Assembly: GCA_951406725.2 (NCBI GenBank) | Contig: OX597819.1 | Span: forward strand, 2,976,001 to 3,040,000 | Source: Octopus vulgaris | Taxonomy: Eukaryota | Reading direction: 5' to 3' | Length of the DNA stretch: 64,000 bases | In this document: in pieces, positions 9,739 through 60,994 of the stretch | Layout of the letters: each line of letters starts with the position of its first letter | How positions within the stretch are numbered: position 1 is the first letter of the stretch | The notes under the pieces: generated by a model | The model's database searches: none | What the model was told of the DNA's origin: nothing | Seen by the model: the letters and a program-made list of their open reading frames with translations, nothing else | Program-made: the position numbers and the translations under genes

Positions 9739-10269
9739 ATATATAAGTTCATCTGGGTAATTTTGAAAAACTGATATTTGTGAACAATCTGAGTTATTGA
9801 CATAGTTCCTCAGAAAAGCATTTTACATTTTATATTTGGTTCCTTTTGCACCAAATTAAAATTGAAATTATGAAACAATTGAGGAAGTTGTTAAATCTTG
9901 TATTCTCTACTATCTATTTTTAATGAATGACACTAAACATGAGCTTGGATTCTGAGCAAGCATATGAGCAACAAATTTGGAAGTTAATTATAATTACATT
10001 TTATTTTTCTGAATATTCAAATGTTGTAGGAGCAAGAAAAATAATTGTTTAATTTTTACTTCAAATTTGTCATTTTAGAAAATGATTCTATAATAAAGTT
10101 ATTTTTCCAGCCTATTCAGAATACCAAACCCAAAAATCTGATCTTTTTTAAAATAAGAATATGCTTTTGAATAAGTAACGAAAAAAAAAAAAAAGCTGTA
10201 TGAAAGTGATGAAAACAGAAATAAAAGCAAATAAAATGAAATGAAATGAAAATCAATATTTCTTGGTGG

Positions 10270-10730
10270 AAATCTCAAGACCGCCATCTTCTGTTTGCAA
10301 GGATTTGTGCAAGTCCATCGAATTGTGTGATCTTTAGTGAAAAACAGTGATAAATAAGTAAAATGAAATATGCAAGGAGCGTTAATTGTTGCCATCAATT
10401 CTCGTTGATTATTTAAACGGTTGAGTAAAAGTTAAATGCGGCTAAAAATAATTGTTCTGCTCTCGAATCCCCGTTTTCAGTCGTAATTCAACGGTGAAGC
10501 AGCCATCATGTCACGGAGAGCCGAGGGTCAGCTTTTCATCGGAAGATTGAGCAAAAATACGCGACAGAGAGACTTGGAAGAAATATTCGAACCTTATGGT
10601 CGTATGCAGAGATGCGAAATTAAGTATGGTCAGTATATTTCCGACACTTTTTCTCGTCAGAATAAGCGTAAATCCATTTAGTTTGTTGCAACTTCTGCCT
10701 CCTCAAGTGCGATCGCCATTTTTACTCTTC
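10270..10730 (+). promoter_or_regulatory. CpG-enriched promoter/5' region of the SR gene, with YY1-type motifs and a possible Inr
   Basis: Local excess of CpG (extending to about 12200) against a CpG-depleted background. CCGCCATCTT at 10281-10290, CGCCATTTT at 10714-10722. TCAGTC at 10477-10482 could be an Inr or a 5'UTR splice acceptor. Confidence 0.55.
10508..10628 (+). CDS. SR splicing factor (RRM + zinc knuckle + RS; SRSF7/9G8-like architecture), coding exon 1
   Basis: ATG at 10508 translates MSRRAEGQLFIGRLSKNTRQRDLEEIFEPYGRMQRCEIKY, with RNP2 motif LFIGRL. Phase-1 donor G|gtcagt at 10629. CpG-rich context. Confidence 0.93.
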
Positions 10731-13639
10731 GAAGATTTTATTTTCGATGTCAAATTAAGATTTCTTACTTAAAGTTTGTAAATTTAGTGAATGCTGAATC
10801 TAATATCTCACAAGCAGATCGTAATATTACCACAGAGTGATAAAATAAACATTTTCCCCTCTCTTCCTTCGTGTTTCTATCCTCTACGTGTCCACAATCT
10901 TCTTCTTCTTCCAACTCCCATTTGCGTTCATTCCTTCGCATATTTATGGAAATAATTTACCAAACCGCGACCAGATCCACGAAAATATAATATTCTGCTG
11001 GACATACCTGCCGAAATATTCCTCCACAAATCACACCTAACAAACATAATTGATATTCGTAAATTATTTACGTGTTCATTTCCTGTGTTTAATTTACTTG
11101 CTTCATTTAAAAATGGGTCTTTTACGGGAATCCTTTGCTTTTCGCTTTTTATTTGCTTCTAAACCGACAATTCTCGAGTGTTTTACTCTTAATTGCTGAT
11201 ACATATGTTCCTTCCATGTCCATCCAAGTGCTTTTTAAAGTCTCTCGGCTGCAATCTCCTTCTTGCAACGAAATCATGGAAATCGGATTTGATTTTAACT
11301 TCGACACTAGTTTCCTTATAACTTAAATCATTTATTATTTATATCCTCACTTTCCCTTTTCCCCGACACGTGTCTTCTTCTATAGAAACGGTTAAACATT
11401 CCCCACAGATCGATTAAATGCCGCTAATTCCATCTTTTCGCAGTAGTAATTCCCTCCCTCGGCTTCTCTCTCCCTCAAAAGCAGTCGCTCGAAATTTCAC
11501 CTTTTACAAAATATTCTTCTTCACGTAAATGTTTATAATTTCTATTCCGAAGCATTCACCAATTACAACATGTTAATTACCAATTTAACAAGACAAAAAA
11601 TGTTTCCCCGAATTCATAAAAAAAAAAGTATGAAGAAAATTATTTTTTAAGGTTATGTTTTTTATTTTCGAAAAATATAAAAATATCGATTACAAAAACC
11701 CTTTTTTGGGTAATTTTTTCCGTTTTATGTGGGTAAATGATTTAGCTTTAAATATGCACGCACACCCACACGTACCTAGTTCCGTGTGTACATTGTATGC
11801 ACAGACAAAGTATGAAGGCACGTGGCAGAGTGGCTTGGGTGTTGGGCTTACAATCGATAGGTGTGGGTTCGATTCTTGAATCGGATGAGGTATTGAGTCC
11901 TTGAAGAAGGCGCTTTCATCTCATGATGAAAATGACAATTAGCGATAGGTGGGGAGCTACTCCAGCCAAGAACTAACTGGCATCCCCCTCTTGTACTCTC
12001 TTATCGCTTTTAAACGGAATGAAAACCAGGCTAAAACGTGTATATAGATACGCGGCGAAACCATTTCCCGAAATTATTCGGTTTTGACGTTTGGAAAATT
12101 TTTTCGGATGTTTGTGAAGAATCGTAACTTCAGATGTTCAAAACATCAATCTGCCAAAACCGAAAATTTACGGAAGCGCGGAGAGGCACGCAGCCAATTG
12201 AATAAAATTTTTTTTTTGCAAAATTGTAATTTGAGATTCTTAAAAACATCAGATTCAAAGAAATTAATGTTTTTGATACACTAGGAATGTCATGTATCAA
12301 TTGTCATCATTTAACGTGTACTTTTCCATGCCTGCATTGATCAGATGGAATTTGTTGAGGTAGATACTTAATGTGGTTGGATACTTAATAATCTGTCGCC
12401 AACCATCACCTGTTTCTAAGTAAAGTATTTCCCGAGACCAGATATTTTTTCATAGAAGATTGCAAACAAAGCACACTGCTTGCATAATAGTTATAGTCAT
12501 TTAAAAACTGCCATGCGATGTCATGGCAAAGAGAGAGAAACGCACACACACGACAGGCTTCCTTCAGTTTGCCAAATCCACCCAGAGCTGTAGTAGAAGA
12601 CAGTTGTCCAAGGTGCTATGCTGTGGGACTGAACCTGAGACCATGTAGTTAGGAGAGGAGAGACTGAGAGGGAAGGAAATTAAGTTGAACTTGTATGCAT
12701 TTGAATGTTTGCTCACTGATACAAAATGGAAGTGATGTAGCAACAATATACACACATTTGGTAACTTTACCAAACTTTAAAAAAAATTGGGCACAGGTAT
12801 CTACAAGAAATTGCTTCCAATCTCATTCAAACCACATCCTACTCTGTTAAAAAACAGAAATACATTAACTGAAGTCATCATTTTATACCCATTTTCCACC
12901 ATGGCATTGGTTGAACACTGACAGGGTCCAATGCGTCTGTGGATATTGTCTTGATCTATTTTTGGCATGACTTTGTAATGCCAATCACTTCACAGTGTAT
13001 GGGGTACTTTTTTGTGGTACCAGCACTAGTGAGGTTGAATTGTAACTTACAAGACTACAGTCTTTGTCAGAGAAGGAGAATAGGAGAAAGAGTGGCGATT
13101 TTAGGTAAGGTATTGAGAAGTTAAAGTAATGATTGGAGGAGCAGGCTTATTGTTGGTAGAGTGTTAGTTGAGAAGTTTAGAGCATTAGGGAAAGGATTAG
13201 TTGAAGAGAAAGAGTAGTGACATGTTTAATGAGAATGAGTCAGTGAGTGATAAAAAGGACAGTGGAGTGGATTAAGTAGGAGCAAATTTAGGACTTACCT
13301 CCTCCTACTCCACAATATATTTGAGTGGGATGAGGGTATGATGCTAGAAAAAGAACGAAAGATGATGGTGCTGAGGGCTACCTTAGGTAAGCGAATTGGA
13401 AAGAATGTGGGGCCAGAAGAACGAAGAAGGATGGGTAAAGTTTGCAAGAGTAAGTTGGAGTGAGTGATGGATAGAAATAGTCATAGGTAGATAGGGATGA
13501 AAGTGGTCATTGGTGAGCCAGTGGGTGACAGTGAGAAGAATGAAGGATGGAGGACAGTAAGAAGTGGCCCAGGAAAGAAGGAGTGATGAGTGGCAGAACA
13601 GAAAGGGTGATAATATATGTAGTAATTGGGCATTTCATC

Positions 13640-16330: not shown

Positions 16331-17652
16331 GCTCTGGAAGTTTTATACTTGATAGGAAAAGAGAGTGAGTTGTTGAAAGGGTTATGTAAATGTTTGCTGC
16401 ATGTGTCCAAATATCCAAATATTAACACTCAGTGTAGTATTTGAGATATTGTCTCAAAAAAGAAGAAGAAAAGTGAGATGGTCATGGTTAAAACATTTTT
16501 GATCATGTATCCACTTGATCTTGTCTGATCAGGGGCTAAATATGTATACAATAAATATAAACTCATACGTTATCTGTCTGTCAAATATATCCACCCACTT
16601 GTCCATTTATCCACCCAGTGGATGTCTTATCAGTCAATCACTCATTTCATTCAGTCATTCAGTGAAACTCCAGCGTAACTAGATTGTCACATTTTTTGTT
16701 TGTTTTTGTATTTACACAAGTACTTCTGTGTTTTGGCAACAGTCATTGTAGTGAATTTTTATATAATGCAAGTTATATGCAGATACCTATTTACATAGCT
16801 ATAACAAGGTGAATATTTTACATAGTAACAGTGATTGCAACTAAATAACATTGTTGTGTAGCTAGAGGGAGATAATACCTAACAAAATCTGCTCCTCCTA
16901 TTGCTGTTGAGGTAAAGCCTGCCTTTTTCTAGCAGTCTCTACTTCATGTTATATTATGCAGCATTTTCTCTCAGTATCCATCTATGTCTTGCTAATCTTG
17001 TGACATTACATCTCCCCTGGATATTAAATGAGGACTTGGGTTGTTGAGCCTGATCTTGAGAGGCTGTTCACAGCACCAGCATATTTCTACACATTTGTTG
17101 CCCCATTGGGATCATTTGAGATTATTTCCACCTCACGAATGATTGTTTCTGTACGGCATTGACTATTTAGCAGGCATGTGGCATTATCTCTACATGAGAA
17201 GCCTACCTCAGCACTGTTTGCATCTATTTACTAGAATTTTCTTTATGCTAGTTGTGCATCTGAAAGACCTCAAAATATGCCTATTGAAAATTTTTGTGTA
17301 CCTATGTGCCTGTCGAAAATGTTTATACACTAGATTAAGGTAAATCCTACCTAGACAAGTTTTAACATTCAGAGAAAATGGAGGTGAAAACCATGTGACC
17401 TTATGGTAGTGTTTTGTTTTGGTGGGGTTATGGTTGGATATATAATCAATCCTTCTTTGAAATCACTAGCAGCCTTGTTATAATATAGGGCTGTGGCATT
17501 AAAGGTTTCCTTATTTGATGATAAGTTAGAGATTCATGTGCTTACATGGCTGGATGGCAAGTATCTGTGTTAATATTTGTCACCTTCTCATTTGGTTACT
17601 GGAAAAGTTTATAGGTACTTGTATTTGAATCCAAGTTTACTTCCAGGCAATC

Positions 17653-18122
17653 AAGTATTTTCAAGTTGGTCTCTGCTGTGACTTGACCCCAAGGGAATTA
17701 AGTATTTTCAAGTTGGTCTCTGTTGTGACTTGACCCCAAGGGAATTAAGTATTTTCAAGTTGGTCTCTGTTGTGACTTGACCCCAAGGGAATTAAGTATT
17801 TTCAAGTTGGTCTCTGTTGTGACTTGACCCCAAGGGAATTAAGTATTTTCAAGTTGGTCTCTGTTGTGACTTGACCCCAAGGGAATTAAGTATTTTCAAG
17901 TTGGTCTCTGTTGTGACTTGACCCCAAGGGAATTAAGTATTTTCAAGTTGGTCTCTGTTGTGACTTGACCCCAAGGGAATTAACTATTTTCAAGTTGGTC
18001 TCTGCTGTGACTTGACCCCAAGGGAATTAAGTATTTTCAAGTTGGTCTCTGTTGTGACTTGACCCCAAGGGAATTAAGTATTTTCAAGTTGGTCTCTGTT
18101 GTGACTTGACTCCAAGGGAATT
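17653..18122. repeat. 47-bp minisatellite, 10 near-identical copies
   Basis: Unit AAGTATTTTCAAGTTGGTCTCTGTTGTGACTTGACCCCAAGGGAATT, head-to-tail with no spacers. Confidence 0.97.
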
Positions 18123-19837
18123 AAGGGCATAAGTTAATCCCTTCCTAAGCTTATAGAATGTGTGACCATTTATCCCTCTCAATTTGTTATATAGTGCACT
18201 TAACTTTGCTAGGAGTTGTACTAAAATTTGTGACAGTGGTGTTGACATCATCATGCACACCAGGAAAACTCTGCTATTTGAAAAGGGTTTGGTCTAAGTA
18301 AAGTGGACTCACCCAGACAGCTTCTTCTATGTAGTGATAGGAGCATTTGACAATGCTGATGTATGTAACCATAAGGCCTTTTTATTCTTGATATAGTTAG
18401 TAAGAAATTCCCCTCAACTAGCTTTGATCCACATAGGGCCTTAACATTTTCAAAATGAGCAAATGGTCACACACTCAACATGGCCTTTTGTGTTTTCTGT
18501 CTTGGTTGTATTCTTTCAACCATGTTTTGTGTTTGGAACTTGTACTCCTCTGAGATCCAAGAGCTGGATGTGTTTTAAGGTCTCCAATAGCAAAGAACCA
18601 AGCCATACTTTTCCATTCAGTCATGTCCAATGATTGTTAATTTTATTTCTCTATTGCTGGAAGGATTCTGGCATAAAACAAACCGTTTGGTAACATTCAC
18701 TGGCTGTCATAAGATTATAATATTATGTATAATAATAATAATCATTTCAAAGTTTTGCCACAAGGGCAGCTTGTGGGAGCGGATTAAGTTGGTTACATCG
18801 ACCCCAGTGCATAACTGGTACTTATTTAATTGATCCAGAAAGGATGAAAGGCAGAGTCAACCTCGGTGGAATTTGAACTCAGAATATATTGATGGGCAAA
18901 ATACTGCTAAGCATTTTAACCAGCGTTCTAACAATTCTGCCTGCTTGCTGCCTTTATGTAATACTAATAATGATAATAAGAGCACTCAGAGAGTGCAAAC
19001 CTCTGCCAAGGCAACATCAATGTCCTCTCAACGATCAGCCGGAGATGATTTTTAAAATAAGAATATCTGAAATAAACTTGACTGCTCTCACAAACAAGAA
19101 TACTAAAGATAAACCCAACTGCTCTCAAAAAACAGAAAAATAATCTAGAATCCTTGTCCAGTACCTGATTGATCCCAATGGTAGTCATGGAATGTGAAGG
19201 TGGGTGTGTGGGCTGTGTTTGTAATTCTGTGTGTGTGTGTGTGTTGTCTGCAGTGGGAACAGGGACAGTTTTCTCTACGAAGTCCTTTTTTAGTCTATTC
19301 ACTGATATAGTGTCTTTACTACCTTAAAGGTCTATAGTAAAAAATTTATCTGTTCATGAAAGAAAATGGAAAGGACCTGTATACAGTGCTGTTAAGGGAG
19401 TTTTAACAACATTGTTGCACACAAAAACTTGAATCCAAGAAGTAAAGCTTCCTTCAAGGCAGAGCTAGAAATGCAATTGTCATGTAGGTAAGAGGTTTTG
19501 AACAGGAGTGATATATTCAAATTGGTAAAACTAAAAATTGGTGAGAATAAATTCATTATTTTTCCTGAATATGTTAGTGTTATTTAATTTCTGAACGGTT
19601 TTGCTGCCGTTTGTTTATGTAGTTTGATTTCTTTATCCATCAGTTTCTACTAAGACGTGAGTAAAATTAATAATAGAGAAAGAAAAATTTCCAAATATAA
19701 TCCCAGGTTGAATATATGGCCCTTATACACCCTAGAATCAAGCTCAATGTATAAGTAAAGATACAAATATAAATAATTTGTAGAGCATAAGAATAGTTGG
19801 AGTGATTAGAGCTAAAAATCCAAAAGTTAAAGCAATA

Positions 19838-22510: not shown

Positions 22511-23636
22511 GTAGATATGTAAGTATGTGTATTCCGTGTTATGCTGTTGAATTTCGACTGAAAGATGTTATGGCAAGGTCTTAGTTTGTCAGTGTATTAT
22601 TTCTAGACCATTTCTACAATTGTATTATGATGCATTTTGATGATATTTCAACATGTATTTCCTCATTTTGAGATAATTTGAGAAGTGTGACTTTCTCTTT
22701 CCTCACTCACCTTTGAAGTTTATAACTAATTTAGTGTGATAGCGTTTTGTTTTGAAAGGTTGATTGATTTATGTCAGCTGATGTCAGTTTATTTGCTTTT
22801 AGAAAAGCTTGGTTAGCTCTTTTGTCAAATAGTTTAGTTTTTTGATATTCTGATATATAAGTCTTAGATAATAGCCATCAGCAGGTGATGATTCTGTCAA
22901 CCCAAATATTCTACCTGTTTTATGTTCGTACTTGCCAGATCTGACTCCTCACACCTACTCTACAATGTCATTCTAGAAATAAAACAGTCACATCATTGAA
23001 ATCTCAAAGTATGATTACTTCAAAACAAGGTGAATAAGTATTACATTTAACAGTAACCTAAATAGTAAATGGTTAATAGCAGTCTCTGATGACTAAAAGT
23101 TCTTTTGGGTACTAAGATTTCAAAATTATTTCAGATTGGGAAGAATAACTTGTATTCTTTTTTTTAATGAGATTTTAAAAGCTTGTGTAAGCAAAATTGC
23201 AAGATTTTGTAATTTTTTAAAGATTTGTGGTTCAGTTAGGTCAAGCTCACTAATTAAATATTAAGCTGTTGGGAAGAGGAACTTGTAGAGAGACAGGCAT
23301 GATATAGCCATATTTTGAGCCACTCTTTCATTCAGTAATGTTTATTGTTACATTTGTGTAATATTTACTTTTCAGTGGCTTCTATGAATTGAAATTAAAG
23401 CAACTTTATTTTAGTGTTTATTCACATTGAATTTGTTTTGTTTCAGGTGGAGTAAAAGCTTTAATGATTTTATGATTTTAATATAAAATATATTCATGGT
23501 TAGTGTAATAATGTAATTTAACTTTTTGTGATTCAATATTTTTATTACTAACAATTTTTTCTTAAAATATAACCAAAAATAAAAATATTAAAGCAAAAAT
23601 TATCAAATATTTAAAACTTCTAAATTTATTTTTCAG

Positions 23637-23648
23637 GTGCTGAAATGG
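23637..23648 (+). CDS. SR splicing factor, 12-nt microexon (coding exon 2, adds G-A-E-M)
   Basis: tttatttttcag|GTGCTGAAATGG|gtaagt: consensus acceptor and donor, phase 1/1. Gives KY-GAEM-AYAFVDY in the loop before RNP1. Confidence 0.8.
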
Positions 23649-32029: not shown

Positions 32030-32070
32030 CTTATGCTTTTGTTGACTACGAAGACCGCCGAGACGCCGAG
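32030..32070 (+). CDS. SR splicing factor, coding exon 3 (RNP1)
   Basis: atatttcag|CTTATGCTTTTGTTGACTACGAAGACCGCCGAGACGCCGAG|gtatgt encodes (A)YAFVDYEDRRDAE. Phase 1 in, phase 0 out. Confidence 0.93.
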
Positions 32071-36200: not shown

Positions 36201-37379
36201 AGATAGTGTTGTGAAACAGGGTCTATTGTGTAGTCTGGATGGCATTTAGCAAGGTAATTAGGGCACATAAATCTGAAGTTTCTGCTTTTTCATTTTACCT
36301 GCCAACTCCAGAGGGAAGGTAGTTTGGTTCAAGTTTAAGGAACTTTTCAAAGTTAAAGAAAAAGACAACCCAAAACAAAGCAAAAAAGAAAGCATTAAAT
36401 GTGAGATGCAACTTCTATTTGTAAACTAAATGGTGGAGAATGGTAACCAGCCAACTTGATATTCTCTGGGTTAATTTTGATATAGTTTCACTTATGAAAA
36501 ACTAAAGTTGTACTTCAGCTTTTAATAATTTGTAGATATTGTTTTCATTTGTGTAATAATTTCACAAATTCATTTCAATTTAATAAATACTGTAGACAGA
36601 TTTAGCCACTAACCCAAATTATGTTCTTGTAGGACTATTTTAATGAAATATTTTTTATTTTCAGGTGTAAAAATTTTAGAATGATTTTCTTGAAAGAAAG
36701 CCATCTCTAATTTCTTGTTCCATTGTTGTACTATGCTTCTTAGGTTTGACTACCTTTTTACAAGATAGTTGTTTACTTATTAATATAGTATTAAAAAGTA
36801 TTAAAATTTTTAAAAGAAAAATAATTTTAGATTGTACTCTCTTGAACTATGATATATTAGTAACAGACTGTTACTGCAGTTAAAATGAACTTTATCATTT
36901 GTTTTATGTTTATTTCTTTTTATTTTTATATAATATACATATTTATAAGTTTTTAATGATGATGAAATTATGAATTTAAGTTCAAAACACCCTTTCATAA
37001 ATATCTAAGATAAAAATAATATCTAAGATAAAAATATTGTTAGTTTTCACATTAAACCATTTTTGAAAATTTTCAATCATAATGAGTTCAATTACATTGA
37101 TTTTAATTGCATCTTTAGCATAATGAATTAGTTGAAAGAATATAAGATTAAAGCAATATCTAATAATGACATTTTTAAAAGTAAAAATGTCTTGATTTCC
37201 TTTTTATTTGTTTTTAATAAATTTTTATTAGTAAACTAGTACATTATTTCCTCATTTGTGCCCGCCTCTTCTTACAATTTGATGTTATAAACATATTGTA
37301 ATTCTAGTGACTGTTTTAAGGTTGTTTTTAAAATAGTTTTTGCATGTGCATTTAATACATTTCATTTGTGGTAAACTAG

Positions 37380-37646
37380 CAGACTAGCCAAATGCCGCAG
37401 AAAAGCCTGATCCGGTTTGAGACCGAGCATGATCCGATAGCCAGGCCTGTTTCGCCTTTGGTATTAACCATGTTCCCATGGTCTCCCTTGCCAGTTCCAA
37501 TTCCTGACCATGCTTACCTGACCATTACCATGTGACCATGTCCATTGTGAACATATTCATCTGTCCATGAGGTGGTGGAGCCGCCAATCCCACCGCCCTG
37601 ATCATGGCTTCCAAGCGTCTGTCTGCCATTGGTCCCATGGTTTTCA
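37380..37646 (+). other. candidate poison (PTC-containing) cassette exon of the SR gene
   Basis: GC-elevated island in an AT-rich intron, not repeated elsewhere in the window. In-frame AGs end at 37379, 37382 and 37400; in-frame TGA at 37533-37535; donor TCA|gtatgt at 37647. Confidence 0.6.
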
Positions 37647-38258
37647 GTATGTCATGGCAACTTTGCCACTTTTTGTCATTGTCTTCAATTTCTGCATGTA
37701 ATAATATTACATTCTTGTTTAAATTTAGTATGTACTGTTTTTTAAATGTTCTTAAAAGTAACTTTAATAAATACACACAAGGTAAAAGTTTTGAAATTGT
37801 AATTAAGTGATAGGGAGGCTGCATTTCATAGATATCTGTGCGAGAAAAATTGTATAAATTAATGTGTACACGAGAAATGCTTATTCCTTAAATTCTTATA
37901 ATTGTTAAGAAAAAAATCTGAAATCATTTGATGCTAAATTAGTTTCGACTAATATTACAAAACTCAAAGTCTAGTAGTCATTGTGCTAATCTGTCATATT
38001 TTGGTAGTTGCCGTCATAACCTAAACATCATTTTGCGAGATTCTATTTTTACGATAGATTGACAATCAGTGTTTTTGTTACGTCAAATTCTTGAATTTTA
38101 ATCTGAAATATTGCATATTTTAATTACCTTATATGTTTTGTATTTAAATTTTGATGAAAGGCTATATTGATAATAAAAAAAAAAGTGTTATGAGGTTATG
38201 AGATAATGTAATTTAACAATATTGTAATTAAGTTAGTAAAAAAAAAAGCAAATAAAAT

Positions 38259-49177: not shown

Positions 49178-49273
49178 GATGCTATTAAATATGAAAATGG
49201 TCGAGAAGTATGTAATTCAAGTATCATTGTAGAATGGGCAAAAGGCAACCCAAGACGTCCTTTAGTCAGTAAT
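49178..49273 (+). CDS. SR splicing factor, coding exon 4 (end of RRM)
   Basis: attacag|GAT... encodes DAIKYENGREVCNSSIIVEWAKGNPRRPL(VSN). Phase-0 donors at 49265 (gtcagt) and 49274 (gtaagt). Confidence 0.9.
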
Positions 49274-51569: not shown

Positions 51570-51703
51570 GGCTATGATGAATGCTATCGCTGCCATCGAC
51601 CTGGACATTGGGCTCGGGATTGCCCTGATGATCGTTACTATGGTTACAGAAGGCCCGAGCGCAGTAGCTACTACAGATCACCATCTCCACGCCGAAGACG
51701 AAG
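51570..51703 (+). CDS. SR splicing factor, coding exon 5 (CCHC zinc knuckle)
   Basis: tttgtttag|GGC... encodes GYDECYRCHRPGHWARDCPDDRYYGYRRPERSSYYRSPSPRRRR, containing CX2CX4HX4C. Phase-2 donor AG|gtagtt. Confidence 0.93.
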
Positions 51704-51810: not shown

Positions 51811-52225
51811 ATCTCGATCAAGGTCACGATCCAGAGACAGGCGTCGCAGAAGATCTCGAACAAGGTCTCATAGTAGAGATCGCAGTCGTAGTAGAGACCA
51901 CAGGAGTAGTAGTAGAGACAGAAGACGACGTAGTCCAAGCAGTGAACATCGACGAGGTCGAGACAAACTTAGTCCAGATCACTATCGACGAGACAAAAGT
52001 AGATCTCGATCAAAGAGCCGTTCTCGATCTGTTAGTCAATCCAGAAGTAGATCTGTTAGCCGTTCCAGAAGTAGATCCCGAAGTGCTTCCAAAGGGAAAA
52101 CAAATGGAGAACAGGAAACTGTTGCAGTGAAACCAGATCATTCTCATTCATCTAGTCGGTCACGCAGTAGATCGAGGGACAAGTTTACACGGCAGTCAAG
52201 AAGCAGAAGTGTTTCGCAAAGCTGA
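51811..52225 (+). CDS. SR splicing factor, last coding exon (RS domain)
   Basis: caatatgtag|ATCTCGATCA..., in frame with ORF 51740..52225 (RSRSRSRDRRRRRSRTRS...SRSVSQS), TGA at 52223-52225. Summed exons are 819 nt (273 codons) with the distal exon-4 donor. Confidence 0.95.
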
Positions 52226-57005: not shown

Positions 57006-57139
57006 CAACATGACTACTTCATTTCGCTATAAAACTGGAGCCCTTGTTCCAAAATTTAGATATTGATAATAACTGTTTGTAGTAAGCACTTTCACAATCT
57101 ATATTCACAAGTTATAGTATAAGGATCTGTATATCTTAC

Positions 57140-57239
57140 CTGCACAAGTAGAGATGGATTGACTAGTTTTTGAACTTCCTTCTCCAATCTTGCTGCAAAC
57201 CCAGGGATCATTGTTACACCTCCACTCAGGTAGATAGCT
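57140..57239 (-). CDS. actin-fold protein, penultimate exon
   Basis: caacag|A GCT... encodes AIYLSGGVTMIPGFAARLEKEVQKLVNPSLLVQ|gtaaga, matching the actin LSGGTTMYPGIADRMQKE motif. Confidence 0.92.
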
Positions 57240-57865
57240 CTGTTGAAGATATTCACAAGAAGAATAAAACTAGACAACCTCTTGTTTAAAGGAACTTGCA
57301 TTTATTTAATTTTGGTTTTCTTTTAATACAGATGTCCAGTTAAGATAATTCAGAAAATATCTGTATATAAATGAAATAATGGCTATGGAGTCAAGGTATT
57401 GAACTGATTATATTTGTTTTTAGGTTCAAACCTTACTTCTGTCATTATGCTAAACTCCTGGAAGGGCATTTACATCTTGCTTTAAAAAAAAATCCCTTGT
57501 TAACTTCACAACTGACTTTATGGAAAAAAGGGTATTCAGCAAGTATTGATGTTTGTAGTTGGAGATGATCCTTATTACTAATCAAATAAAGGAGGCTAGT
57601 TGGTAGAATCATTAGCACACTGGACAAAATACTTAGTGGCATTTCTTCTGGTGAGTTCAAATTCCACCAAGGTTGACTTCGCCTTTCATCCTTTCAGGGT
57701 TGATGAAATAAGTACCAGCTGAGCACTGAGGTTGATGTAATTGTCTAATCCTGCCTAACCCTAAAACAGGCACCTGCTAAATTTCAGACATTCTGTCTAT
57801 AGTTGAAAGGATTATTACTCATTAAATAGTATGGAATGGCATTCATTAATAAGTCTGAGATAAAT

Positions 57866-58110
57866 GGGGGGGTGTGGCTTAGTGGTTAGGGTGTCAGCAT
57901 CATGATCGTAAGATTGTGGTTTTGATTCCTGTACTGTGCGATGCGTTGTGTTCTTGAGCAAAACACTTCGTTTGACGTTGCTCCAGTCCACTCAGCTGCC
58001 AAAAATGAGTAACGCTGCGATGGACTGGCGTCCCGTCCAGCTGGGGAACACATACACCATTGAAACAGGGAAACCGGGCCCATGAGCCTGGCTAGGCTTT
58101 AAAAAGGACG
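57866..58110 (+). mobile_element. tRNA-derived SINE
   Basis: A-box TGGCTTAGTGGTTAG and a degenerate B-box, then TTCTTGAGCAAAACACTT. Related copies at 62507-62835 (-) and about 11816-11990 (+). Confidence 0.75.
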
Positions 58111-59044
58111 CATTTATATTTTTATGAATGGAGTTGTGCATCCTGCCTGTTTCAGTTTTCCAAATTGAAAAAACAAACAAACAAGCAAAACCAAAACAAA
58201 AACCCCAACAAAACCACTATTTATTTGGCATAAACTTTATAAATCCAATTTAAGTAATAAAGTATTTTAAAAGATACTTTTTATTTAGTGAAAAGCCTTT
58301 TTTTTTTTCAGTTTTTAATATTGATTTGGTATTTGTTTTTGTTATTGATGACCTGTAAATAAATGCATGATGTAATTTTTGCTAATTATATGAACCACTA
58401 AAATAATTAGAAAACAAACGAGGACATTTAATAGCCAAGGTTTCTGATTTGTAGAAATATTTATATGAAGTCAAGAGACATTAACATCAACAAAGAAATG
58501 AAAACCTAATCACGTTCACTTCTCCAGATTGGTAGCAGTGTTTAATCTTGTTTCTTAAAGCTACTAATTGTGTATCAATGATGGAGAATAAAAAAATAAT
58601 AAAGTAAGGCCAATTGTTTGATATTGAGTAATTACGAAAGATTTTTCAACAATTTTTGTTTAAGCTTTCAATCGTCAAGATGAGTTACCTCCCCTCACTC
58701 ACAAGCTGAAGAAAATTGGATACAAAAACTTCATAAACGAAAGAAAACAAACAGAAAGAAAAACAACAACTATTTAATAGGTTTAAAGAAAACTATTGCA
58801 ATTACTGTTTTGTTATAGAAATCAATCTTGAGGAGCAAAAAAGAAGTTTAGGTAAGCATTTCTTTGGATTATCAAGTCATGAATATATCTTTTTCTAGAT
58901 TAAATGTGTCCCAAACAGGAAGATAGCAAAGTTTACCGTTTCATCCTTTTGGGACTGACAAAAAGGAACCAGTATCTATTGACACTGAATCAATTTCATG
59001 AACATTAATCTTGGACCTAACAGAGGAATAATATTTCTACCAAC

Positions 59045-59191
59045 CTGCACATATGCCTCCTGTTATCCATTGGACATGCATTAATTGCTTTTAATACCAG
59101 GGCTTGGACTGTGGGATAGTCCATACCCCACAGGTCTGTATTAAAGAAACCTTCAGGACTTGCAAAGCAGCTGATATCATGGCTTATGGTG
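59045..59191 (-). CDS. actin-fold protein, internal exon
   Basis: tcttccag|C ACC... encodes TISHDISCFASPEGFFNTDLWGMDYPTVQALVLKAINACPMDNRRHMC(R), cf. actin ERFRCPEALFQPSFLGME...CDVDIRKDL. Phase 2/2. Confidence 0.9.
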
Positions 59192-59926
59192 CTGGAAGAT
59201 AGGAAAATATTTCATTAATAAATATATTTTCATGTTTTGTTTTAGTTAACTTCAAATGACATTTTACTGGTAAAGAGCTTTGTAGTTCACTTGAAGCATT
59301 GTAGTACAAAAGTAGAAAAAGAAAAGGAAAGTAAAAAAGCCTGTAACAATGCAGTAAGTTTTACAAAAACCTTTAGATTTCAGGTGCAAAGACCCTTCTT
59401 CAGAACGAAGCAGCTCCAAAAATGTCAAACCACATTGATTTCATTTAAACTGCTCGGTGACGACAACCAGCATCATAACTGTTATGTCCCGCATTTTGAT
59501 GATGTATTTTGCCGTCTTTACAAGACTGCCCCGAACAGCATAACTCACTGACTGACACTACTGACCGTGTCAGTCCACCATTTATTAGCAGTGGACCAGC
59601 CCATTTCTCACCTGGGGGCATCCACCACAACAATAACTTACGCCACCAACACCATCTTCAATAATACACCAATGACCAACAATTGGAGAGTTTCTGCTAC
59701 TGCTGCTAACCCTAATGTTGAGCAGTTTAAATAAAATAACAAAACTGATGTAACTGGATATTTCTTGACCTGCTTCCTTCTCAGGATGGGAATTTGTGCC
59801 TGAAATATAAAGTTTTTATGAAACTTTTCGCTTTGTTAAAAGCTTTCTTTATTTTCTTTTTAGTTTATTAGTAGCTTTTTAAAAATATATATTCCATCAA
59901 TTATATATGATTTATCAATACAATAC

Positions 59927-60042
59927 CTATAGGTGTCTTTTGGTATATCATATTTGTTTAAATATACTGATGACAAGAACTTTTCTGGCTGCTGCATATA
60001 TTTCTGTATCTCTTCTTCATAATTTTTGGATACATAGCATGT
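59927..60042 (-). CDS. actin-fold protein, internal exon
   Basis: ttttcag|ACA TGC TAT encodes TCYVSKNYEEEIQKYMQQPEKFLSSVYLNKYDIPKDTY(S), cf. actin LCYVALDFEQEM. Phase 0 in, phase 2 out (gtattg). Confidence 0.87.
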
Positions 60043-60463
60043 CTGAAAAATATTTATAGAATTATTATTTAAATCTTTCATTAATGCATCAAAAACTTAT
60101 CTTTCAAAACATTCTAGATAATATTTTTCCCTTAGTAGTCACAGTTATTACAAAGGCAATAAACATTTCTTCATAATATTTGGTGGGACCAGAGATTTGA
60201 AATTGAAGAATTGCAAGGAAAAGATGCATAGAATTCACCTATTTTATTTTTCATTCACTTATTATGAAGTACTTAAAATTTCTAGTCAGTGGTAATCATG
60301 CATTTCATCCTTTTTAGAAATCACCAGCATGATTACAACCTGTGACTTACTAATTAAACAGTTTATGGAGAGAGACATTTCATTAAAAGATGGAAAATAA
60401 TTTCAGTCTGGAGGAAATTCATGGAATGCATGTGCTTTTCTTTTTCTTCATAGAGTATTAATA

Positions 60464-60994
60464 TTGGGTTGTCCGGAAAGTTCATGCCAATTTTTAAAGG
60501 AAAGAAAAAGGTCAATAAATACTTGTCATTACATTTTTAATAAACCAAATATGAATTTCCTTTAACTTGAAAATACCCTCTTCCCAGAATTGAGGTAGTT
60601 TCATGGCAAAGAATTCATCAAGGTATCTTTTTATGTCATCCAAGGAATTGAAATTTTTACCATTAAGACTATTCTGCAGAGACGTGAATAAGTGGAAATC
60701 CGAAGGAGCAATATCTGGTGAATATGGAGGGTGGAGTAACACATCCCGGCCGAGCTGCAGCAATTTTTGTCTGGTTCCCAAAGCATTAAGTGCCGAAGAT
60801 GAACTTTCTTATCTTCCATTTTAAAAGGTTACAGACTTAACACAGGTTATAGGAACATAAACCTTCGTCCACGAAAAGATAGCTTAAACTGTGCTCTAAA
60901 CGAAGGCATAGTCAAATCTTATTTTATGGACTCAACCATGTTCTAAAATAAGTCGAAAGGTAAGCTACTATAACAAGCTTTCCGGACAACCCAA
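60464..60994 (-). mobile_element. internally deleted mariner element (MITE-like)
   Basis: Perfect 17-bp TIRs TTGGGTTGTCCGGAAAG / CTTTCCGGACAACCCAA, TA on both sides. Retains HPPYSPDIAPSDFHLF and an N-terminal MEDKKVHLRH fragment. Confidence 0.92.

Follow-up and report, generated by a model that had tools for sequence, protein, structure and literature searches.

A conserved 12-nt microexon coding for the predicted beta2-beta3 loop of the RRM in an SR-like protein is spliced into transcripts in Octopus vulgaris

The 64,000-nt stretch of the Octopus vulgaris genome analysed here (the window; GenBank contig OX597819.1, positions 2,976,001 to 3,040,000) contains a 12-nt microexon at 23637-23648 (+) that codes for G-A-E-M within the RRM of an SR-like protein. 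Its presence in transcripts confirms that it is a real coding exon that is spliced in by this organism. Inclusion by default with minor skipping is the reading preferred here, at somewhat better than even confidence, and the data so far do not support neural or tissue-dependent switching in this animal.

The microexon is preceded by a U-rich acceptor ending in CAG (...TTTTTCAG), comprises GTGCTGAAATGG (23637-23648), and is followed by a GTAAGT donor. The earlier note on this DNA had proposed consensus splice sites around a 12-nt exon that keeps the frame whether present or absent, between introns of about 13 and 8.4 kb, and its coordinates prove exact. Intron 1 is 13,008 nt and intron 2 is 8,381 nt, and the exon is of phase 1-1, with exon 1 ending and exon 3 beginning in phase 1, leaving the frame intact with the microexon in or out. 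A candidate branch point, TACTAAC, is predicted from the sequence at 23546-23552 (+), ∼85 nt 5′ of the acceptor. Consensus at the splice sites is by itself weak proof of an exon, as generic 12-nt pseudo-exons defined by consensus sites alone arise 0.28 times per shuffle of the 21-kb region. The site pair combined with G-A-E-M coding was found in 0 of 300 shuffles versus exactly once in the window, and this, together with spliced contigs in 4 of 4 runs, rules out a chance pseudo-exon. Elsewhere in intron 1, a strong-looking acceptor at 23430-23447 (+), 190 nt 5′ of the microexon, would cause a frameshift and an early stop if used and would then resemble the alternative 3′ sites of plant RS2Z genes, and a 47-nt tandem repeat is present in 10.2 copies of 98% identity at 17645-18125. 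A complementarity scan for an RNA bridge across the introns gave only dispersed repeats (71-82%).

Exon 1 was found in 19 public runs, none registered as RNA, and four of these (X1, X5, X9 and X14; 4 studies, 2 organisms) were compared at the level of contigs, which carry no tissue labels. The contigs were placed on 10200-12700 and the exon-1 junction was read from their loose ends; the skipping junction, 10628 to 32030, spans 21.4 kb. In all four runs a single contig, with a start near 10268-10285, spans exon 1 and runs on without a break through the microexon and 20 nt into exon 3. The departure from the genome is at 10630 because the first two bases of the microexon equal the GT of the intron, and the loose end consists of the other 10 microexon bases and the first 20 of exon 3. 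As exon 1 has one match in the genome, spliced transcripts are the simplest source of these contigs, and a retrocopy is an unlikely one. The exon postulated in the earlier note is thus carried by transcripts in 4 of 4 runs. The skipped form is absent from the contigs of the same four runs, as read from all but 30 of the loose ends, and contigs drop rare variants and give no inclusion levels; the depth of the last full exon-1 bin equals that of the single contig in each run, so that no second form is seen there.

The coding part of exon 1 (10508-10628, +), which has a phase-1 donor and is supported by the contigs and a Pfam RRM_1 match, encodes RNP2, alpha1 and beta2. The microexon follows, documented by splice sites, contigs and orthologous loci and placed in the beta2-beta3 loop by the AlphaFold model of a Lingula orthologue, and then the 41-nt exon 3 (32030-32070, +), seen in the contigs and equal in length in orthologous loci, which encodes RNP1 and the start of alpha2. 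Exon 4 (49178-49264 or 49273, +) encodes the end of the RRM, exon 5 (51570-51703, +) a single CCHC zinc knuckle (Pfam zf-CCHC, E 4.3e-07) and the start of the RS region, and exon 6 (51811-52225, +) the RS domain to the stop codon; the junctions of exons 4 to 6 derive from homology and splice sites, not from RNA. Two candidate donors of exon 4 lie 9 nt apart, after 49264 and 49273, and leave the linker before the knuckle without or with V-S-N; this linker also varies among the isoforms of homologues. The modelled protein is accordingly 269 or 272 aa, with one RRM, one CCHC knuckle and an RS domain, and its RS region covers 147 aa with 65% R+S and 51 RS/SR steps. The N-terminal RRM followed by an RS-rich C-terminal domain is the arrangement that defines SR proteins, and this domain order suggests that the product would act as a splicing factor. 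On the opposite strand, exon-like pieces of a neighbouring gene occupy 57095-60096 (-), one with a weak Pfam Actin match below the cut-off (E 3.1e-05), and reading frames at 60512-60828 (-) resemble what we take to be the end of a mariner-type transposase.

The modelled protein matches a Lingula protein [GenPept accession XP_023930093] at 118 of 133 aligned residues. Named homologues occur in molluscs, brachiopods, annelids, bryozoans, chelicerates, myriapods, tardigrades, echinoderms, hemichordates, amphioxus, cnidarians and sponges, with weaker ones in ichthyosporeans and one fungus. No vertebrate or insect member is present among the 67 and 120 named matches listed (the 120 being part of 528), which is weak evidence, drawn from among the matches listed, for loss of the subfamily in vertebrates and insects. 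Database names of the homologues are inconsistent (SRSF7-like, SRSF4/5/6-like and RS2Z-like), Foldseek returned generic RRMs only, and the family tree (44 rows, 80 columns, without named SRSF7 or RS2Z rows) does not resolve the grouping, its bootstrap being unsettled.

The best single-RRM match is RRM1 of SRSF6 [PDB 9r53], with 62.5 bits for the included and 66.1 bits for the skipped form. The skipped form aligns to it without gaps, whereas the loop of the included form is four residues longer. By similarity alone, the tree being unresolved, the RRM is therefore closest to RRM1 of SRSF4/5/6. However, SRSF4/5/6 have a second pseudo-RRM, of which SWQDLKD is the motif, and the gene model here has none and carries one zinc knuckle in its place; Pfam finds one RRM stretch per homologue. 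SRSF7/9G8 and the plant RSZ proteins share the composition of RRM, one CCHC knuckle and RS domain, but the RRM of SRSF7 is less similar to that of the window (44.9 bits, below SRSF6), in a comparison where the 80-column tree is without named SRSF7. Plant RS2Z proteins have two knuckles, in contrast to the one CCHC found here.

Predicted folds of orthologues stand in for the joined protein of the window. In the AlphaFold model of the Lingula orthologue, an inclusion form (pLDDT 87.1), G41-M44 fall exactly between strands 33-40 and 45-51, and a skipped oyster form is predicted to fold with a two-residue turn (pLDDT 87.8). These models predict that the microexon supplies the four residues of the beta2-beta3 loop directly ahead of RNP1, in agreement with the position first suggested for it. 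Among 184 records matching the loop pattern, a count that includes isoforms and a few records outside the family, 120 have a loop of this length, 45 a longer one, 3 one in between and 16 one of the skipped length. Since the loops of sponges and the fungus Coemansia are equally long, the long loop is likely ancestral as well as the majority state of the subfamily. The description of the four residues as an insert is thereby reversed: the long loop is the usual state and not a novel insert. The same loop is longer still in spiders, a hemichordate, tubeworms and leeches, and that of oyster paralogue B has one further residue, likely from a tandem acceptor, with a tandem donor likely in some loci (records P0282, P0058, P0025, P0294 and P0216; exon-1 ends of loci L030, L036 and L045). 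Such lengthening and variation in spiders, the hemichordate, tubeworms and leeches hints that the loop is tuned. In RBM39 the beta2-beta3 loop contacts RNA (PMC10477243), and the loop described here might do likewise.

A scan of metagenome contigs yielded 80 loci, of which 13 were compared for the exon-1 end and a separate exon-3 start. All 12 loci with separate exons 1 and 3, representing ∼9 distinct sequences, carry a 12-nt exon between the same two introns, so that the segment and its intron positions, which had been put forward for checking in orthologues, recur throughout. These microexons code for G-A-E-M, G-A-D-M or G-A-E-F, have consensus sites with GTRAG or GTATG donors, and are followed by a 41-nt exon 3. 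The introns in orthologous loci total only 0.4-2.8 kb, so great intron length, as in the window, does not belong to what is conserved. Three further loci have the microexon and lack exon 3. In the 13th locus (L065, 1-330) exon 1, loop and exon 3 form one continuous segment, after which come an intron and another copy of exon 3 that has diverged. Intron loss, considered from two short records (P0128 and P0151) that read across exon borders, was put aside because similar loci resemble partly spliced RNA contigs. In Nematostella the loop reads K-T-A-Y in the JGI model versus K-T-G-R-D-M-S-Y in RefSeq, which is the exact codon change predicted by a 12-nt exon of phase 1-1. The microexon would accordingly predate the split of cnidarians and bilaterians, the cnidarian side of the comparison consisting of gene models, not DNA.

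The 16 records with a short loop comprise 7 RefSeq alternative isoforms, 8 single models or unnamed records, and one two-RRM protein outside the family. The 7 isoforms come from 5 loci (Babylonia, paralogue A of Ostrea and of Magallana, paralogue B of Saccostrea, and an amphioxus hybrid), each of which has a sister isoform that includes the segment. Accessions for skipped isoforms are XP_065940597, XP_055998070, XP_076470993, XP_061176164 and XP_078587977. Paired isoforms in RefSeq normally rest on RNA junction evidence. At least 2 of the 8 single or unnamed records are contradicted by RefSeq for the same species, and the warning that gene predictors overlook exons this short holds for the Nematostella JGI and Mya GenBank models, which miss the microexon when compared with RefSeq, and for the Pomacea GenBank model, which runs into the intron. 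The microexon is already within the RefSeq models of orthologues. The alternative use of the exon proposed in the earlier note is partly borne out by RefSeq isoforms of other molluscs and amphioxus and so far not in this organism, where inclusion alone is seen in 4 of 4 runs.

These records bear on three accounts of the exon. That it is strictly constitutive, and that every short-loop record is an artefact of annotation or alignment, draws on the single models that demonstrably miss it (Nematostella JGI, Mya GenBank and Pomacea GenBank) and on half of the short-loop records (8 of 16) being single models or unnamed. We nevertheless regard it as very unlikely, given that both forms stand side by side in RefSeq at 5 loci and that the microexon is without an internal AG, so an alternative acceptor is unable to mimic skipping. 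A conserved regulated switch, by which the exon is left out in certain cell types, stages or conditions to yield a short-loop RRM with other RNA or protein partners, is a possible but rather unlikely account. Two phyla show skipping, and among oysters both paralogues do, a recurrence that also fits a conserved regulated event. The RefSeq isoforms that lack the exon, from 5 mollusc and amphioxus loci, would be its products; the skipped form is predicted to fold and is gapless against SRSF6 RRM1, where the included form is a four-residue insertion, the RBM39 loop touches RNA (PMC10477243), and two introns have been kept 12 nt apart over long times. Against this, a skipped contig is absent in 4 of 4 runs, and most RefSeq sets with several isoforms (B. 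floridae, ticks, echinoderms, Saccoglossus and abalones) have no skipped form.

Under the preferred reading of default inclusion with minor skipping, two phase-1 introns would have come to flank a pre-existing loop segment before the cnidarian-bilaterian split. The perfect GTAAGT, the U-rich acceptor and the TACTAAC-like branch point would probably suffice to define the exon, with no need of a tissue-specific helper; strong splice sites are reported to mark constitutive microexons (PMC8831610). When the microexon is missed, the frame would be kept and the product would be an RRM still able to fold, its turn as tight as in SRSF4/5/6. Skipped transcripts giving a foldable in-frame product would therefore be tolerated and appear as minor isoforms.

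A neural microexon dependent on SRRM3/4 (eMIC), included in neurons and skipped elsewhere, seems scarcely probable. The exon shares with eMIC microexons a very short, frame-preserving form (12 nt), and it has a strong donor and, at some distance, a strong motif resembling a branch point, but it differs in having no UGC between branch point and AG. The earlier remark that UGC is missing just 5′ of the acceptor extends further, there being no TGC in the 200 nt 5′ of it. Of 9 flanks compared, 3 are free of TGC within 70 nt, and in no flank does one lie nearer than -18. UGC is typical of SRRM3/4 targets and not strictly required, as it occurs in 79% of one class and 74% of another (10.1101/2024.09.17.613571). 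Inclusion is however the majority form in all taxa, and the long loop is found in sponges, which have no neurons, and in a fungus. The microexon probably lies outside the neural eMIC programme.

Downstream of the microexon, intron 3 contains a GC-richer island at 37371-37690 (+; borders approximate), the second-highest-GC 300-nt window of that intron, which is CCAT-rich, follows tandem acceptors and reaches a stop in the frame of exon 3. It is a candidate stop-containing (poison) exon, and poison exons are known in SR genes (PMC11346455). Contigs of X1 and X14 stop 51-52 letters past exon 1, at the exon-3 end, as a splicing branch there would cause. Three homologue records run into other sequence after exon 3. 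At locus L025 exon 3 is joined to a segment of intron 3 that soon meets a stop, and at L023 the intron ahead of this segment is retained. A GC-richer island of intron 3 is conserved within two pairs of loci, L030/L037 and L071/L072, at 73% over 410 nt in one pair and 76% over 506 nt in the other. The motifs GCCAT and CCATG are shared by 7 of 7 islands, a partly circular result as the islands were chosen by GC content. The window's own island has no significant sequence match to those of other loci, and its peptide alignments with them are at chance level. A conserved poison exon in intron 3 is put forward as a candidate, and control of gene dosage would more likely operate through it. A broader proposal is that a microexon older than the bilaterians lets an overlooked RS2Z-like splicing factor of animals alternate between two RRM forms, one with its own long loop and one with a tight turn of the SRSF6 type. 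Regulated splicing would in that case exchange the RNA-recognition modes of two SR subfamilies, would not depend on the SRRM3/4 programme, and would operate next to a conserved poison exon. In this full form we consider it unlikely.

The intron that separates RNP2 from RNP1 undergoes alternative splicing in plant RS and RS2Z genes, and the introns at this place are long in RS2Z32/33 (Kalyna et al. 2006, PMC1636356). The window gene has two long introns between RNP2 and RNP1, a likeness seen at the level of the region. In related plant RS genes such splicing truncates the protein (PMC1636356), whereas here a frame-preserving microexon lies between the two introns. In animals, the amphioxus protein Br125053 was placed weakly with plant RS2Z by Richardson et al. 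(2011, PMC3173450), who left the antiquity of an RS2Z-like lineage in animals open. Br125053 has one RRM and one zinc finger, and its RRM, given in the supplement of that paper, matches the amphioxus homologues found here. The published model is the short form without the four loop residues, and the accessible portions of PMC3173450 do not mention the microexon.

Microexons of great age have been described before in RNA-binding proteins (PMC8553928). Those of ELAV/Hu and SRRM3/4 are likewise tiny, old and frame-preserving; the conserved ELAV/Hu microexon lies in the hinge and is regulated, and bee elavl2 has alternative exons in the RRM2 loop (PMC8553928). The window exon differs from these in lacking UGC and, so far, signs of regulation. 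No paper on this microexon was found in the portions of the literature accessible to us; the supplements of Torres-Mendez 2019 and of bioRxiv 10.64898/2026.09.05.749416, which describes exon orthogroups including octopus and amphioxus, may list it.

The exon thus probably has a very long history in animals, and its gene belongs to an SR-like subfamily spread across the invertebrates. It explains a recurrent annotation error, namely the short-loop models in databases and in the alignment of PMC3173450. Homologues from sponges to chelicerates and amphioxus bear on the question, raised in the same paper, of an ancient RS2Z-like lineage in animals. If skipping is regulated, the two natural forms would offer a clean test of whether the length of the beta2-beta3 loop sets RRM specificity.
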